A stretch of 63,493 bases of DNA, filler included. It is 12 parts of 12 records of this genome, joined end to end, with 100 filler letters (N's around TTAATTAATTAA, not from the genome) between each part and the next. Parts side by side here need not be neighbours in the genome. Positions count along the whole stretch, not along the records: positions 60,372 to 63,493 come from SRR7504441_2433; 11 more parts are not named here. One strand, given 5' to 3'. Position numbers and translations under genes: made by a program. This document shows positions 35,964-63,478 of the stretch, one piece after another. The notes under the pieces were generated by a model that saw only the letters and a program-made list of their open reading frames with translations, was not told the DNA's origin and made no database searches. Each line of letters starts with the position of its first letter. The first letter of the stretch is position 1.

Positions 35964-38900
35964 TCAGTGCACTTTACGACGCTTTGTCGTGCGCGGGTGA
36001 GTTTCAGCGCTGCTTTCCCAAGATTGTTGAATGCATTGTAGCACATCATCAAGCAATACCTCACGATGTTGCTCATCGACGCCTAAAAGAGGAAGCCACC
36101 GACTTAACGATTGCTTGGTCTTCTCCCCTTTTGTCATCCCTTGTCTCCAGACCTCAGTAGGATCTACCCGCTTCGAAAAAGTCTTGTAATACAGCGCAAG
36201 ACCATTAATCTGTACAACAAGGGGACTCGAGTTGGGACCATACTTGTCTTGACTAAGTAGCGCTGACTCCATCTCACACAATTGACTCAGTGTCGGGCCC
36301 CCTGAAGGCCGCATGTGTCCGTTGGTACCAGAATGCGTTGGGTCGTCTGCCTTTTTTGCCTTTTCTACCTTTTCTGGCGAAGGTGCTGATAAATCGACTG
36401 CTGACTTGATTTTAATCCGAGGCTTGGGCTGTGACAGCCCAGCTGCCGTGGAAGCGTCAGCAGGCAATGCAGCCTCCACTTTACACGGTGCGGGCATGGA
36501 TTGAGTCATCTGACCTTCAGCAGGCGAAGGTTCGATCGAGATCTCTTGCTGCTGCGCCTGTTGTGACGTTACTGTATCCGACACTTTTCCAGAGGGCTGC
36601 ATGACTGGTCTGCTTTCCTCTACTGTCTGCACTGGGACGTTCGTTGGGGGTATAGGCTGTGAAATCTCTGTCATCTGTATTCGGAATGGTTGAGGGGTCA
36701 TTGGCATTGGTGCTGCCTCTGTTCCACGGACAGCGTGTACAGATTCTGGTGGGATCAGTGTCGCATTCATTCCTTGGTGTCCTGGGAGGGTGTTTGTGTT
36801 GCATATAACAGGTGCAGTAGTGAGTATTGGCTGGGCAGTAGATCCATCTTGTGCATGGGGCACGCTGATTGATGGAGCACTGCCACCCACACGTTGCAGT
36901 GCAGGGGCATTGATCATCTGACTTGCGAGGCTTGATTCCTTCTGTACATGGCTATTTGTTGGTTCTAATGGAACGGTTGAAACTCGATTGAACATGACAT
37001 TGCATCCTGAACTTTTCGAACCAGCAGGGATCTGCTGCATTTCTCCGCCGCCGTGTTCACCAGCTGCCATCTGTGCAAGCTGCAGGTGTGCTCCAGGAAT
37101 CATGCAATCGAGTCCTTGTCCTGATGGCTTTGGAATCATCCTTTGATCAATGTAATTGCTAGCTACTTGATGCTCATTCACACCTCCAGTTGTAGCCATA
37201 GCCCCGAAGTCAGTGCCTTGCTCATGTCGCCTCCGCTTCTGTGCTCGCTCCCAGGTTGGATCTCGCCCGAGCTGTGTGAATGCTGTGTTGGCAGCTGCAG
37301 GCTGTCCATGGCCACTAGAGTAGCCACCAAACGGAGGAAACTGTCCTGAGGTCTCCACATTTTTGGTTCTTTGTTGTGTCTCGTATACTTGTTGTGTGTC
37401 GTACCGGAGCTGCGATGAAGTAAAATTTACTAACACTGCAGGACCAGGATGGGTCGGTAAGCTGTAGGGCACTGTGGACTGTAACGGTGGAGGTTGGTGG
37501 CGCATATGTTGCGGTGCGCAGTATCCAAAGCCCTCTGAGGATAATCTATTTGGCAGGGGAACACCTTCCGCCATTCCAGATACAAACTGACTATGGTACA
37601 GGACCGCCTCTTCGGATTGCACTATGGGTAGATCTATGGGATTGAGGCCGTAGCCTGCTCCTGAGCCATTACTTGCTGCCGGATGCTGATAATGCATTCT
37701 TGGGTCTGCCCGCTGGCTATGCAGCATTGGCATGGCCATCATACCCGCCGGGAGGGCATTGCTGAGCTCTGAGTCTGGTCGTACAAGGCCATGCGCACCT
37801 TGCCAGCTGTCATGATTTCCCATCTCTGGCGCAGCATCTCGGTAAAGCTCTTTGGCCTGTGCTGGCTCACCTGGCTCTATTTTAGGCTTCCCTGGATCGC
37901 CAGCTGATGCAGCTGTTGGTTCTGGGGCTGTGGAAGCTGGAATGTCACCAGCTCCATCTACTTGAGGCAGCTTCTCTCCCGTTGGCGCAATGGCTGGCTC
38001 GTCTGCAACTACTACTGGCTGGCTAGGCCTTCTGCTTTCTTCAATCAGCAGCACGGGTGCATCGCCTGGAGACGCAGCTTCATCGCTCCCAAGCAAGGTG
38101 GCCTCAGCTCCAGCTGTATCTACAGTCAAACCAGGCACATTTGCCGCATCTGCCACCTGATTTGGTGCCTCTTCGACTACTTGCCTCTCCTGAAACACTG
38201 CAGGAGGCCCCTCCTGTACTGCTGCAGGAGCATCTGCTAGGGTTGGAGCTTGCAGATTCCCAGGGGTGTGCGCCCTGCCTGCTCCCAGCTCCACCTCTGG
38301 TATCTGAATAGGCTCTGCATCAATTTCTGCTGGTTCATCTACCGCCTCTGATCCAGCAGGGTTCTGTTGCTCTGTGACTGGGTGGACAGCTGAATCGCCT
38401 GCGTGATCTGGCTGCATCTGTTCTAGTGTTGCCCCTGCTGCTGCCTCAATAGGTTGGCTCGTCACTGCAACGCTCTGGGGGATTGAGCCTTCAATGGCAG
38501 ATGAGGCCTCCGGCTCCTGTGCAAGTTCCTGCTCTTTGAGTTGCTTCTTCTGCAGCTCTCGCAACTTTCTCTGCTCACTCTTGCGCTGCCTCTTTGCCTC
38601 TGCTGCCTCTTCCCTCAATGCAGCTTCAGCTGCAGCTGCTTCCTGGGCTTGCAAGAGTCCCTGCTGTCGATGTGCCCGCCTTGCTGCTTTTGTTGCTTCT
38701 TTACTGGCCCTGTAAACTTGGCATTGCTCTTTTGACAAAATCTCTGGCCTTCGCTGCCGTATTTGGGGCGTGAGCAGCATCGGAACATCTACAGGGACAC
38801 CCCCTACCATCTCTTGCTTGGTGTGAAACCATCGGTGTATACTATTGGCTGTGGGCATTGACGTGTCATAAGTACCCACAATCAGCCCGACAAATGGAGC

Positions 38901-41109
38901 AATCCCACTGTTCGTGTCCATCATCAGTGATTGGTAGTTTGCCTGGTTTTGTATGTCTGTGATTGAAGGATCGGGCTGAAACACTGGATGTGAGTGGTAC
39001 CATCCAATGACCTCCAGCTTTTGAGTTGCAATCACCTCACGTACATGCATCTCTGACGACGGGTCCATTTCCACGTCTGTCATCCCATCCCAGCCACAGC
39101 TTTCAGCAGCACGGCATGGGAACGCTGCCTGAATATACAAAGTGAGAGCCTCTGCGTCCCAGCGACCTCCAAGAAATCCAATGACTTCAGCATCAGCTAA
39201 GTGCGCATGGAGGTCACAAACAAAGCACACCTCAGGCATCACTTTGATTTGAAAAGGCTGCTCTCCCACCTGCAATCCGCCCCGTCGGCTTGGCTGCGCA
39301 CTCGCGTTTCCGTTGGAATAAGGTTCACACTGCACCATGGTGTGTGCATCAGCCACTCCAGTAAGCAGGGCCTTGGCCAATTGGGCAACCCGCAGTGATG
39401 CAGAGTGCGCTCGCTGACTCGAGTCTCTCAGTCTATTGACCGAGTACTCGGTTCTGTTCTTATCCTCGTCGTCCTCGTCACTTGAGCTTTCATCAGTAAA
39501 GATCTCGTCTTGCCACACACCGCGGTCCGAAACCAAGTCCACTCGAGGATCAATCGTGACTTCCCCAGCTGGCACTTTCTTTGAGCCAGGGAACAGATGT
39601 CTTGAAAGAGGCGTCGGTTTGCTCCACAGATCTTCCGATTTTGGAGAGCTTACCTGCGCCTTTGTACGAGGCCTCTTCCTCTTTGCAGGCTGCTGCTGCT
39701 GCTGCTCCAACTTTGCCTCTCGCTCCCTTTGAGCCCTCTCTCTGCTGAGCTCTTGAGCCCTCTCTATGCTGGCCCTCTCTCTTTCTTTCCGCTGGAGATG
39801 CTCTTCAACCACTTTGGCTACCATTGCATCCCGGGTCCTCTTCTCACGTTGGAGTGCGACGAGCTCCAGGCTGGGCACGTTCAGCCGAATCACATTCTTC
39901 TGCTTGGGGACCGGCTGCTTGATCGGCGCCTTGGATGACGGCGCGACCACAGAAGCACGCCCGTCCTCCTTGAGTGCGGCTTTGGCTGGGCTCTCCTCCT
40001 CGGGGGCCTCCGCCTCCGGTCGGCTCGGGGCCACAAACTTGCCTGTAGAGAAGCAATCCAAACAATGCTCGCCATAGAACACACTTGACCAGGCGCTGTA
40101 CGCATTCCGGCCCGACGCTCGCACCCCTCTCACGTGTGCCACGAAGGCCGACACGTCGTCCCACTCGCCGGATTCAAACTCAATTCTCCCATTCTCTAGA
40201 AGCGACGCAACCACCGTCTGCTCTTTGTGAGGAATGGTCAGAATGTCCTTCGCTGGCTTGATCACGCCGTCTCGCACCAGCGTCTGCAGCGTGATGGGCT
40301 CAGCCTCCACCAATGCCCCAACTTGCTGCTCGGATTCAACCTGCTGGTTCCGCTTCTCCTGCCGCCTCTGAGCCTCCCGTTCCTTCCGGACATCCCCAAG
40401 CTTGTCCAGGTCGTGACCGTATTCTTCAAAGTCTCGCTGCAGCTCCTCGAACAGCAAGCTAGCCTTTGCTCCCACCTCGTATGGCTCACCTGTGGCAAGA
40501 TAAAGCTGGTGCAGCACGACAGCCTTGGCAAGCCCGCTCGAATTCCCCTGGAACACCGCAGGGTGCCGCGCCAGCGCCAGTTGCTGCTTCACCGGCCCGT
40601 CGGGGCACATCTCCCACGCCTGGTCGAGCGCATTCTTGACGGGTTTGCCTTGGTTGGTTGGCATGTGTCGTATCCTGCGGACAGGAGCGTACCAACCCGG
40701 CTCGGCCGGTTCTGCTTTGGCCGCAGGCGACTGCTTTGCAGACTTGACACTCGCTGCCCCGGGTGACTGCGCCGGCGGCTCCTGCTGCTCTTCTGTAGCC
40801 TCCTCAGGCTCTGCTTTGATTCCTCCAGACGGCGCGGGCTGCCCCGCTACATCTGCAGGCTCACCTGCTGGCTGCGCCACGGCAGCCCGGGCAACTGGCT
40901 TTGCCTGCTTGGCCTCCTGACTCGTACTCTTCTGCTCAGCTGCCGCCTTTCGCTGTTTGGGACCGCGCTGGACTGGCGGCGCCCTGCTGGAGCCAGATGT
41001 TACGGACGCCCTGCTGGATCCTCCAGTTTTAGCTCTGCTCGCCCCGCCCTTTGGCTGCGATACGCCCTTTTTGGCAGCGATCGCAGCCGCCACGTCCTCC
41101 TCCGTGTTG
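35964..41109 (-). CDS. MPND: MPND-like protein (RAMA domain plus MPN+/JAMM domain), 5' truncated
   Basis: ITLQTLVRDGVIKP...SAF...AWSSVFY (RAMA), DLHAHL..EVIGFLGG...GWYHSHPVFQPDPSITD (JAMM), C-terminal YYKTFSKRVD..VW...KxxxSL. 1709-aa uninterrupted ORF. Confidence 0.8.
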
Positions 41110-60271: not shown

Positions 60272-60443
60272 NNNNNNNNNNNNNNNNNNNNNNNNNNNNN
60301 NNNNNNNNNNNNNNNTTAATTAATTAANNNNNNNNNNNNNNNNNNNNNNNNNNNNNNNNNNNNNNNNNNNNTCATTTCGTTGCAGATCGAGTCGATCCGT
60401 CAGCTGCCGGGTAGGTGCTCGGCGGTGCGTGCTGTCTGGCGTG

Positions 60444-63400
60444 ATGCCGCGCACTCGCGGGCTGCTCGAGCTGGCTGCGGTGGAGCGGATGCTCTGGGAG
60501 CAGACCAGCCGGGCCACAGACCCTGGCGAGGTGAGCATCAAGAAGAAGAACGCCGTGCTGGCCGACCGAGGGGCCGAGGCCGTGGCCGAGTTTGTGGCTC
60601 GAGAGGACGGCGGGCACGCGGTGACGTCCCGTGCATTCCCTTTTCAGGCCGGGCAGGTGACACAGCTCAATCTGAGCGACAATCAGATCGGAGCCCCCGG
60701 GCTGACCCGGCTGGCGTCCATGCTCGCCGACAACTGCACTGTGCGCACACTCAATTTGTCCAAAGCCTGCGGCGCCGTGGCCCCGCTCGGGGCGGCGCTG
60801 GCAGCCAATCGGTGGCTGGTCGAGCTCAACCTGCAGGAGTGCGGGATAGGCCCGGACGGCTGCCAGGCGCTCGCTCGGGGGCTCGAGCGCAACCTGACGT
60901 TGGAGCGGCTTAACCTCAGGACAAACAACGCCGGCGACGCCGGGGCCGCTGCGCTGGCCGGCTGCCTGGGGTCCAACACAGCGCTTGTTGGGCTGAATCT
61001 GGCCCGGAACCAGCTGAGCCCAGCCGGGGCCGAGTGTCTGGCCAGCGGGCTCGAGCACAACAGCAGCCTGCAGGAGCTTAATATTGGCAACGAGCTCACC
61101 AGCTGCGCCGGAGGGCAGCGGCTTATCGAGCAGCTCGCCCGGAACGCCGACCCCTGCCGGTTGCTGGCCCGGGCCGGGCAGCTGGCGCGGCTGGCCGGTC
61201 GGGGGCTGGGTGATGGCGAGGTCGAGGCGATGTCGAGCTGGTTAGTGGCACATTGTGAGGAGCTGGTGGAGCTTGAAATGCATAATAACAAAATCGGGGA
61301 GCGCGGGGCGACGGCGCTGGCTGCGGCAGTCGAGGCCTGTCCGACGGTGCGTGCGGTGAGCCTGCATGGCAACCCTGCTGAAGGCTCCGGGGCGGCTGAG
61401 CGGGTTGCGGGAGCGGCGGCGGTGAATGAGCTTCGCTGGATAGAATCACAAGGAGACGGGAGCGGCCGGGAGACCGGGATGAGGTCGGTGAGTCGGCGAG
61501 GGCTCGGGGATGTTGGGGCTGTGATGGTCGCGGGCTGGTTGCGGGACGAGTGTCGTTTCCTCACAGAGTTGGTGCGTTTATTAGCCACTTTATTAGCCGC
61601 TTGGCTCTGAACCCAGCGGACAGGGGCTTCATCATAACGGAATCGGGGCAGCGGGGGCACAGGCCTTGGCCGAGGCGCTCCGAGGGAACTCTAGCCTGAC
61701 CGAGCTGTCGGTTTATTGTAACTTGAAAGGAAGCTTCTGGGGCAAAGCACTCGCTCACGGACTTGCGGACAACCGCACAGTGAGCACTCTCGATCTCGGC
61801 GGTAATGGAATCGGGGACGAGGGCGCGGCTGCTCTGGCGGGGCTGCTCGCAAGCAACACGACGCTGACGGATGTACATATGGATTATAATCAGATTGGCC
61901 AGGAGGGCGTTGCGCGGCTCGCCGACGCAGTTCGGGGCCACAGCTCGCTCCAAACGATCTGGCTGCAAGGCAACCACTCGCCGTCAGCTGAGCAAGTCCA
62001 ATCAGAACTGGCCGCCAGCCGTCCAGCCTGCCCGCTCCCAGCCGATGACTGGCAGGCGCCGCGCCCTTGCTGTGGCTGGCTGAGCCGCTGCGCAGGGACT
62101 GGTCGCACGCGGTCGTACTTGCTCGTCGCCGGTGCGGTGTGCCGACCAGCTTGGACAGGAGTTTGCAGACCAGGCAAGCTCGCTGTCGATTGACCGTGAG
62201 CGGCTGGCAGCTGGCAGAGCTGTGCATATCTGAGTTTGCGGCCAGGAGCGGCGACTATCTAGCCTCAGTAAGCCCCAGCACTGGCATGCTGAGAGCTCCG
62301 CAGGTGCGAGGGGCAGTTGTGCTAGCAGGCTTCGCTCTCCGCCGGTGCGTTCCTCGGCCAGGGGTGTAATAAGCGAGCCCGAATGACAGCAAGGACGCAT
62401 CTGGGGCTCACTGGCTGCAACTGATCGCTCTTGGGGTAGCTGGTGTCCCAGGCCTACCTGACTGGAACGCAGGCTGGCACAAAGTTTATGCCACCTCCCG
62501 TCGCCTCCGCCGACAAAGCGGCCGAGCTAGTGCACGACTCGCATGCTGAACCGCTCGCGCGCCGGGCACTCCGCCGCTGGCTGACGGGGCAGGCATCCCG
62601 CTGGGCCTGTGGGCCGGCTGGAGCTATTGCAGGTGGCATTGGCGCATGAGCAGCCGGCGGAATCGGTGTTAGAATGGAAAAGCAACCGGCTCGTGCTGGC
62701 GGCCAGTGTGTCGCTCCACATGTTCAGTAGCGCCGCGCCGTGCGGGCGGGCCTCGATGCCGGTCGAGTCTGTCGAGGGGCTGATGGTCAAGGGCGGGCTC
62801 TCGCAGGAGTCCGTGCAGGGCGGCGGGTGCAGGCCGGTCGAGCACGCCGCGGAGGTTATTGGATTACCCTGCGGAGGGGCGTCTGTCACTGGGCTGAGCC
62901 TCAGTTGCTCAGACAAGCTACGGCGCTGGAATAGGCTAGGACTGCAAGGCGCGTTGCTCTCGTGTCTGATCGAGCAGCCGATCCGGATGAGCTCGCTCAC
63001 AGTAGGACGGAAGTTCTGCCGAGACCGCTGCGAGGCCGCGTTCCCGGATCTGCCAGTGCTGGGCACAGGGGCAAGGTTAGAGCACCACACACGGGCCGGG
63101 CTCCGGACCGGAGATGGCGATGAGAGCGTCTGGTGGCACCCGGGGATGCAATCGGTGCACCAGCGTGCCCAGGGCTCTCACCAGCTTGGGAGGGCAGGTG
63201 TGCCGGCACGACGGGCGGACTGGTCGCACTCTGGGCTCCCGTCAGCACACCGCAAGGTGCCTGACCAGCGGCGGGGTGGCTTACCGGGCCGCAGTGCGAT
63301 CTCCGGGGCTGTGATGTTTGAAGAGTGGTGCACACTCCGGGCGAACTGGAGATTAGAATCGAAGCTCGATGAGGCCGTTGTGCAGGCCAGCTCACTTCTC

Positions 63401-63478
63401 GAAGCCAAGATGGCGGCCAGCGAGTACATAGCAGCGCGACAAAAACTTTACTTTGGCGCGCCGGCGGAAGGCACATGA
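60444..63478 (+). CDS. LRR (RNI/NLRC3-like) fused to an ADAR/ADAT-type adenosine deaminase; start may lie upstream
   Basis: LxxLNLxxNxIGxxGAxALAxxL repeats, then spliced QEFADQ|LAELC...VLAGF...LIALG|AGTK...HDSHAE (62542-62550)...APCG (62741)...SCSDKLRRWNRLGLQGALLS (62903)...EYIAARQKL. Confidence 0.85.

Follow-up and report, generated by a model that had tools for sequence, protein, structure and literature searches.

A predicted intron-bearing gene from marine metagenomic DNA that joins a leucine-rich repeat solenoid to a Tad1/ADAR-type adenosine deaminase domain

Does the last contig of a 63,493-nucleotide (nt) stretch of assembled DNA (the window) encode a single protein in which leucine-rich repeats (LRRs) lead into a complete adenosine deaminase domain, and what would such an enzyme do? 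The window consists of 12 contigs of 3.1–10.9 kb with G+C contents of 0.55–0.65, joined by N44-TTAATTAATTAA-N44 linkers. Since it is a concatenation of contigs with linkers that hold stops in six of six frames, contig order in it is meaningless, and the LRR-deaminase gene is confined to the last contig (60372–63493, 65% G+C). The gene has 11 exons and a product of 876 amino acids (aa), in which some 480 aa of LRR solenoid are followed by a linker of about 45 aa and, at the C-terminus, by the deaminase. The gene, from a marine microbial eukaryote, adds a divergent member with introns to a eukaryotic family that is known already but biochemically uncharacterised, and the reading favoured below is that of an RNA deaminase aimed by its LRRs. 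The spliced model is as follows.

60444–63478, plus strand: whole gene, ATG at 60444, TGA at 63476–63478, 11 exons, 876 aa
60444–60620, 60657–61571, 61624–62055, 62096–62173, 62211–62267 and 62304–62344, plus strand: exons 1–6
62390–62435, 62473–62592, 62633–63154, 63198–63256 and 63295–63478, plus strand: exons 7–11
60621–60656, plus strand: intron 1, GT-AG, 36 nt
61572–61623, plus strand: intron 2, GT-AG, 52 nt
62056–62095, plus strand: first junction intron, GC-AG, 40 nt
62174–62210, plus strand: second junction intron, GC-AG, 37 nt
62268–62303 (GT, 36 nt), 62345–62389 (GT, 45 nt), 62436–62472 (GT, 37 nt) and 62593–62632 (GC, 40 nt), plus strand: four short introns between exons 5–9
63155–63197 (GT, 43 nt) and 63257–63294 (GT, 38 nt), plus strand: two 3′ introns

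An initial annotation, made from the letters alone, had named eight introns and two more near 63155–63295, and had claimed that their removal gives one stop-free frame. All eight begin with GT or GC, end with AG and measure 36–52 nt, and their removal leaves a stop-free frame of 903 aa from the ATG at 60444 to the TGA at 63476–63478; with all ten introns removed the stop-free protein has 876 aa. The intron style is unusual in that all ten are of only 36–52 nt, with GC donors in three of the ten (CAG before each) and a G after seven of the ten acceptors. The annotated choice of introns stood in part: 62174–62210 is singled out by two profiles, whereas 62056–62095 is one of several solutions and 60621–60656 is optional, the frame also being open with that intron retained and homology giving no confirmation. 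Intron 2 holds an in-frame stop, and its removal joins ...FLTEL to GLHHNGIG with the family profile continuous at positions 352–358. Splicing of the four introns from 62268 to 62632 yields the family alignment through LGxGTKF and HDSHAE. The two 3′ introns flank a 59-nt exon (63198–63256) with the motif HDGRTG (63207–63224), which matches a profile of eight full-length relatives (positions 852–874) in a frame other than that of the flanking exons. As HDGRTG lies out of its neighbours' frame, the loosely placed pair is fixed at 63155–63197 and 63257–63294, and splicing brings the motif into frame.

The LRR-deaminase junction is where a single gene has to be argued for. There are 1424 stop-free paths of one or two introns over it (135 of them single-intron solutions), and because so many are stop-free in GC-rich DNA an open frame alone is weak evidence. 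The first junction intron shifts the LRR frame to that of the first deaminase exon. The second, 62174–62210, is present in all of the top 12 of the 1424 paths, both under the family profile and under an independent profile of ADAT1 and ADAR, and is the only junction intron singled out among the stop-free solutions; with a canonical GT-AG alternative, 62161–62210, the score under the independent profile falls by 9.4 bits. It lies within a conserved N-terminal helix, FADQ/LAELCISEF, which is restored only when the intron is spliced out, and it holds the stop (62191–62193) at which the unspliced LRR frame ends. ATG is absent from the frames of the first two deaminase exons, the first methionine of the deaminase part being that of GTKFM, 18 residues upstream of HAE, so a separate deaminase gene would lack a start.

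Comparison with relatives leads the same way. Against the profile of eight full-length relatives one domain of the spliced protein crosses the junction (aa 228–666 on profile positions 228–688, 236 bits, E 4e-74), and a second covers aa 686–869 (106 bits). A single BLASTP high-scoring segment pair aligns aa 111–868 with residues 108–904 of a 911-aa relative (P0004), from whose N-terminus that of the present protein is at most 3 residues away. In 45 of 80 related metagenome loci LRRs and deaminase stand in one uninterrupted open reading frame (ORF). Given the profile and BLASTP collinearity, the lack of a start for the deaminase, the helix rebuilt by splicing and the single-ORF relatives, the fusion is predicted with high confidence to be real and to be one gene. 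From an oligo-dT RNA library come 151-nt contigs that fall on the LRR exon (60698–60848) and on the deaminase exon (62652–62966), none of them over an intron. A further RNA contig, ending at 62586, has 4 mismatches in 36 letters and continues into unlike sequence; it was discarded as uninformative.

The N-terminal half is the following.

60444–61989, plus strand: solenoid of ribonuclease-inhibitor-type LRRs (LRR_6), aa ~1–486, ending in IWLQGN (61957–61974); from Pfam and family profile positions 228–483

Pfam LRR_6 scores 71.8 bits in 60444–61610 (cut-off 23.4) and 57.3 bits in 61597–62193. Profile matches of the LRRs are to ribonuclease inhibitor and the LRRs of NOD2 and NLRP proteins, and also to RanGAP1 and many axonemal LRR proteins. 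An AlphaFold2 model was made of the relative P0004 (911 aa), not of the window protein, from 28 aligned sequences; over the whole chain its predicted local distance difference test score (pLDDT) is 85.6 and its predicted template modelling score (pTM) 0.75. In it residues 1–476 make up one unbroken solenoid of strands and helices, from which a helical linker leads on to the deaminase; confidence is low in the loop between the two zinc cysteines. The whole-chain pTM of 0.75 is a hint that the two halves may pack in a defined way. Foldseek pairs the LRR half of this model with ribonuclease inhibitor and the LRRs of NOD2 and NLRP3, and the deaminase half with the deaminase domains of ADAR1, ADAR2 and Hydra ADAR (template modelling scores of 0.56–0.76 on the target). 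The likeness to ribonuclease inhibitor and NLR proteins lies in the LRR_6 repeat type and the alternation of strand and helix, these being the top matches by sequence and by fold; the difference is that here the LRRs are fused to an RNA-modifying enzyme, with no NACHT or other NLR module. Neither the window pieces nor five relatives gave a Pfam match to NACHT, NB-ARC or another signalling domain (TIR, death-fold). Mean identity among eight relatives is 57% for the deaminase-side half of the LRRs and 60–62% for the deaminase core, with 42% for the N-terminal LRR half and 35% for the linker.

The deaminase domain and its motifs are placed thus.

62141–63454, plus strand: Tad1/ADAR-type adenosine deaminase domain, spliced, aa ~524–869 (domain envelope 524–869), Pfam A_deamin
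62542–62550, plus strand: HAE, aa 606–608, zinc-ligand His and catalytic Glu, with the Asp of DSHAE before and ..ARR after; invariant in 28 relatives
62735–62746, plus strand: APCG, with the first zinc-ligand Cys (codon 62741–62743)
62780–62797, plus strand: LMVKGG
62816–62830, plus strand: QGGGC loop; in the alignment to structure 5ed1 a Gly takes the place of ADAR2 Glu488, which is the flipping residue of Gly-Glu-Gly
62903–62917, plus strand: SCSDK, holding the second of the zinc-ligand Cys residues and a Lys that corresponds to ADAR2 K519; LRRW comes next
62927–62962, plus strand: WNRLGLQGALLS

HAE, APCG, SCSDK, WNRLGLQGALLS and LMVKGG are where the initial annotation had put them. Pfam A_deamin (PF02137) scores 92.5 bits in 62585–63478, above its cut-off of 27, and 23.8 bits, under it, in 62440–62649. 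The zinc ligands (His, Cys and Cys), the catalytic Glu, the Asp that stands two residues ahead of HxE and the pair of Arg that follow are all kept and stand in invariant columns; this set of features is given for these deaminases in the available text of PMC3239186. Altogether 48 of 52 family-invariant columns, those of H, E, C and C among them, and 33 of 40 near-invariant ones are retained, which marks the predicted protein as a constrained member and not a decaying copy; the four exceptions in the invariant set are the substitutions E>D, Y>F, H>Y and Y>F.

Among solved structures the best matches of the deaminase, by sequence and by fold, are ADAR1 and ADAR2, with Hydra ADAR also matched (E ~1e-9 for one exon; 1e-44 to 1e-52 for the family profile). 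The zinc ligands and catalytic Glu of ADAR1 and ADAR2 are held in common with the gene, as are the equivalents of ADAR2 D392, R400, R401, K519 and R522; EAK...AAR would be the counterpart of K662 and K672. Where the ADARs have double-stranded RNA (dsRNA)-binding domains (dsRBDs) or Z-alpha, a Gly-Glu-Gly loop and a K690 segment, the gene has none of these. Its loop before SCSDK would also depart from that typical of ADAT1, as the initial annotation had noted. The alignment to 5ed1 sets the loop apart from the ADAR type as well: Gly-Gly-Gly falls on ADAR2 487–489, and Mamiellophyceae-type relatives have PPGC at this place, whereas Gly-Glu-Gly is strictly conserved in ADARs and its Glu488 enters the duplex (PMC11334849, a review, available text). 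The same source assigns R400, R401, K519, R522, K662, K672 and K690 to the inositol-hexakisphosphate pocket of ADAR2, with a relay K519-D392-K483. Pfam found neither dsrm nor z-alpha in four window pieces or in relatives, and the same search detects both in ADAR-like loci. Pfam, the family profile and the splice paths agree with the annotated architecture, ribonuclease-inhibitor-type LRRs fused to a complete A_deamin domain that has neither dsRBD nor Z-alpha.

The initial annotation knew of no characterised protein with this architecture, but it is not without precedent. LRR_6 and A_deamin occur together in 11 of 47 proteins from a word-indexed search with the largest deaminase exon, and in 17 of 28 from a profile search. 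Named members are an Ostreococcus tauri protein of 930 aa (XP_003080871.1/CAL55039.1/Q012Z1, ‘Leucine-rich repeat, ribonuclease inhibitor subtype’) and a Micromonas pusilla CCMP1545 ‘predicted protein’ of 793 aa (XP_003058571.1/C1MRU6), and the ESM Atlas holds two A_deamin + LRR_6 clusters, one with 51 members and one with 104, which for the most part are Chlorophyta as far as taxa are given. The single-ORF metagenome loci fall into G+C classes of 0.56–0.60, 0.66–0.71, 0.49 and 0.42. An exhaustive protein search gave 1582 matches at E<=1e-3, among which P0345 (EukProt), P0370, P0388 and P0348 also combine LRR_6 and A_deamin; the last, a dinoflagellate-like fusion, has motifs in common with a dinoflagellate transcript (P0003, EukProt). 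On these sequences the family would extend over Mamiellophyceae, dinoflagellate-type sequences and further lineages. The gene's protein is 29–38% identical to the members found (~31–35% to the full-length ones). Its only close protein match is a fragment of 157 aa, 92% identical, which diverges after 76 residues and carries no splice information, and no close relatives were found in JGI metagenome contigs.

The Mamiellophyceae proteins have the same architecture in the same order, are collinear with the gene over nearly their full length, and have deaminase domains of the same clade. Shared motifs are (S/D)RxLGD.GA, G.HHN.IG, W(L/I).GN, the FAD-type helix and GTKF, followed by DSHAE..ARR, APCG, the (P/G)GC loop, SCSDK..RW, GDGDES and HDGRTG. 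They differ from the gene in that identity is only ~31%, that they are single ORFs whereas the gene has about ten tiny introns, and that their loop reads PPGC against GGGC. The LRR motif N.KG.FWG is found in the gene and in P0345, P0370 and P0388, not in Mamiellophyceae-type proteins. P0345 (EukProt g4886.t1, 864 aa) has a TAFII28 histone-fold region before LRR_6 and A_deamin, possibly through the merging of two genes by the annotator. P0011 and P0015 (~1595 aa) and P0012 (1413 aa), whose contigs reach 1.2 Mb, carry EF-hands together with a p25-alpha (TPPP-like) domain on the N-terminal side of the LRRs and deaminase; these variants carry hints, from their domains, of possible calcium control or microtubule association in some lineages. 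[A second intron-bearing lineage, of G+C 0.60, is seen at L047:1-5300 and L051, with LRR and deaminase pieces in successive ORFs on the same strand.]

In a tree of deaminase domains (66 rows, 434 columns, a quick IQ-TREE search, arbitrary root) the LRR-linked domains, including those of the gene, the dinoflagellate transcript and the EF-hand forms, make up one clade with a value of 100 in the SH-like approximate likelihood ratio test (SH-aLRT). The named ADAT1s (SH-aLRT 99) and the ADARs (SH-aLRT 96) form clades that both exclude the gene's domain. On this tree the LRR-linked deaminases would be a separate group, distinct from both ADAT1 and ADAR. ADAT1/Tad1 resembles the gene's domain in superfamily, long C-terminal extension, absence of dsRBDs and the motifs D-x-HAE, RR, PCG and SCSDK..RW; it differs in being a standalone domain, where that of the gene is fused to ~480 aa of LRRs, and in belonging to a separate clade. 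If the green-algal proteins were plain TAD1 orthologues, grouping with plant TAD1 would be expected. Forcing the LRR clade and plant TAD1 together costs 43 log-likelihood units and is rejected by the approximately unbiased (AU) test (p-AU 0.007, for a group named after the tree was seen). [Uninterrupted ORFs of 791–1291 aa with z-alpha, dsrm and A_deamin (L031:318-4190, L026:83-3523 and L027:2534-4906; G+C 0.43–0.45) are ADAR1-like, group with the ADARs and could be animal cDNA or intronless genes. In another ADAR-like protein, P0343 (1286 aa), there are about ten copies of the segment with the RTKIESGEG flipping loop and several of the SCSDK region, which looks like an artefact of assembly or gene calling.]

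From a gene structure, fusion, family membership, intact catalytic centre and separate clade that are read in the sequences, we infer the activity, the role of the LRRs and the kind of substrate. Probably, though with real reserve, the 11-exon gene specifies an 876-aa LRR-linker-deaminase that belongs to the family and is an active adenosine-to-inosine (A-to-I) RNA deaminase, using its LRRs for recognition of substrate or partner. Because the catalytic centre is complete and constrained, an active A-to-I deaminase is most likely; it would convert adenosine to inosine in RNA by hydrolytic deamination. The conserved LRR solenoid, which may pack beside the catalytic domain, would take the role that dsRBDs have in ADARs, and would bind either the RNA substrate itself or a fixed protein partner that brings it. 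With the intercalating Gly-Glu-Gly loop of ADARs replaced (GGG here and PPG in Mamiellophyceae-type proteins), the target adenosine would more likely lie in an exposed or looped part of a structured cellular RNA than within long dsRNA. The identity of 57% in the deaminase-side LRR half against 60–62% in the core, and the lack of NACHT and NB-ARC, would suit a fixed substrate or partner module rather than a fast-evolving sensor.

A number of observations pull the other way. The model needs GC donors in three of its ten introns, and the position of the first junction intron is not unique, with 62021–62084 (GT, 64 nt), 62041–62095 and others within 1.5 bits. No read covers the LRR-deaminase junction (61948–62472) in the four sequencing runs mapped, and DNA carry-over is possible in the oligo-dT RNA library. 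The tree is the product of a quick search in which warnings of meeting long branches were given, the branch of the gene is itself long (1.43) and unresolved at the base of the LRR-linked clade, and the AU test bears on a group chosen with the tree in view. The K690-bearing C-terminal segment is missing, the match of the family profile to ADAR2 running out at chain position 380 (residue 678). The residue spaced like ADAR2 K483 is a Glu, so that cofactor binding and activity could differ from those of ADARs. In the literature no enzymatic or substrate data on any LRR + A_deamin family member were found.

Transcript editing of the ADAR type has been regarded as having arisen in animals, other organisms having ADAT1 as its sole relative (PMC3239186 and PMC5558901, available text). 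In the text available, Iyer et al. 2011 (PMC3239186) describe Tad1 as pan-eukaryotic and ADAR as metazoan only and make no mention of LRRs, while Keegan et al. 2017 (PMC5558901) expect ADAT1-ADAR intermediates in protists. Three ADAR-like candidates have been given for Symbiodinium (Liew et al. 2017, PMC5357065), and 28 ADAR-like sequences for 24 protists, 14 of the 28 forming a clade (Microbes Environ 2025, PMC11946409). As far as the text available goes, the latter proteins have no dsRBD, contain ‘several other domains’ and form a clade separate from ADAT, which itself is present in 9 of the 13 protists with an ADAR-like protein. LRRs are not mentioned in the main texts of PMC5357065 and PMC11946409, in the parts available, and no paper on an LRR + A_deamin architecture was found. 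The likeness of these ‘protistan ADAR-like’ proteins to the gene, as they are described there, is in an ADAR/Tad1-type deaminase, no dsRBD and a clade apart from ADAT; the dinoflagellate transcript P0003 and the dinoflagellate-like P0348 lie in the gene's clade or have its motifs. From their descriptions in these partly available sources, the published proteins probably correspond to the LRR + A_deamin family.

A more ambitious version can be put forward tentatively, and we think it doubtful: the LRR-linked deaminases would be a third ancient branch of ADAT1/ADAR type, with ribonuclease-inhibitor-type LRRs in place of dsRBDs for RNA recognition, carrying out site-selective A-to-I editing of mRNAs or of other non-tRNA cellular or viral RNAs in abundant marine picoeukaryotes (green picoalgae, dinoflagellates and the lineage of the gene). 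If this were true, editing of transcripts in the manner of ADARs would have arisen outside animals too, and its targeting would follow another principle.

The nearest competitor of the favoured reading, which we consider unlikely, is that the protein is simply the ADAT1/Tad1 of its lineage, a fast-evolving housekeeping deaminase of A37 in tRNA-Ala whose LRRs help to bind tRNA or a tRNA-processing partner. It would account for the absence of dsRBDs, for the absence of the ADAR Gly-Glu-Gly duplex loop, as expected with a loop adenosine, and for the strong conservation of the gene across Mamiellophyceae-type sequences. A search with an ADAT1-clade protein (P0021) gave no Mamiellophyceae name among the 120 matches listed of 444, the nearest named among them being haptophytes; since that search was word-indexed and 120 of the 444 are listed, it is weak evidence of absence. 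[P0021/L078 had itself been considered as a standalone Mamiellophyceae ADAT1 and was rejected as haptophyte-like.] Against an ADAT1 identity, the deaminase domains stand apart from the named ADAT1s in the tree, and the p-AU of 0.007 for grouping with plant TAD1 also disfavours an ordinary ADAT1 with an LRR extension, the outcome that the initial annotation had itself named as fatal to its proposal. A further point on that side is that, of 13 protists in which an ADAR-like protein was reported, 9 have ADAT as well (PMC11946409, available text).

The initial annotation had proposed an LRR sensor of a ligand, for example a viral one, that switches on deamination of tRNA or dsRNA in antiviral defence. 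The repeats are indeed of the ribonuclease-inhibitor/NLR type, with NOD2, NLRP3 and other NLRP LRRs among their matches in sequence and fold; ADAR1 has antiviral roles in animals, and Mamiellophyceae live under heavy prasinovirus pressure. However, neither the pieces of the window nor the five relatives searched show a NACHT, NB-ARC, TIR or death-fold domain, the same type of LRR matches RanGAP1 and many axonemal proteins, and a deaminase-side LRR half with 57% identity beside a core with 60–62% is not hypervariable in the way of arms-race sensors. The sensor proposal finds no support in these comparisons and seems to us very unlikely.

A further reading is that of an organelle-targeted editor which, like the enzyme proposed in paradinids, makes A-to-I substitutions in the transcripts of mitochondria (or plastids); we hold it to be highly improbable here. 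The N-terminus of the gene's protein aligns with the first LRR repeats of its relatives and not with an extension, and chlorophyte algae are not known to edit organellar RNA. The precedent is that two paradinids have massive mitochondrial RNA editing and an ADAR-like protein proposed from immunostaining to be mitochondrial, for which, however, MitoFates predicted no targeting (PMC11946409, in the text available).

That two neighbouring genes or a chimeric contig have been threaded into one frame through permissive GC-AG introns in GC-rich DNA can hardly be right: the 1424 stop-free paths, the junction without a spanning read in four runs and a contig that is a 3.1-kb piece of a fragmented assembly would permit it, but both halves are collinear, in order, spacing and subtype motifs, with many tens of uninterrupted single-ORF relatives, a separate deaminase would have no start codon upstream of GTKFM, and splicing alone rebuilds the conserved helix.

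As judged from its sequences, the family would thus appear to be widespread and conserved, with an intact catalytic centre, in marine microbes that are ecologically dominant; it would be neither ADAT1 nor ADAR, with an LRR solenoid in place of dsRNA-binding domains. Should the LRRs prove to be a module for recognition of RNA or of a partner, this would be a new way to aim an A-to-I deaminase, of interest for the evolution of RNA editing and for editing tools. To this the window contributes a very divergent member with introns, and with it evidence that the family is not confined to green algae and dinoflagellates; the gain is in breadth, not in mechanism.

The source of the DNA is marine in its associations. 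Eleven public runs share words with the window, all marine, seawater or aquatic metagenomes, with 5–9% of the sampled words in each. Nine large ORFs of the window, compared with Pfam, yielded no marker of taxonomy, and the TTL ORF drew a mixture of phyla from the ESM Atlas. A DNA contig of run X2, from another sample, has a 12-nt deletion at 61577 within intron 2, at a short tandem duplication (TTATTAGCC...), and four further differences over 315 nt; given the deletion and the four other changes, a related strain is present in the sea. No second A_deamin domain was found on the other 11 contigs of the window and no tRNA gene in the window. The gene's contig is bounded at its start by the following joint.

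60272–60371, no strand: artificial contig joint, N44 + TTAATTAATTAA + N44, after which the gene's contig begins at 60372

Elsewhere in the window, and unrelated to the gene, 35967–41108 on the minus strand is a stop-free ORF of 1714 aa with a RAMA (restriction-enzyme adenine-methylase associated) and a JAB/MPN domain, an odd pairing for a eukaryotic contig.

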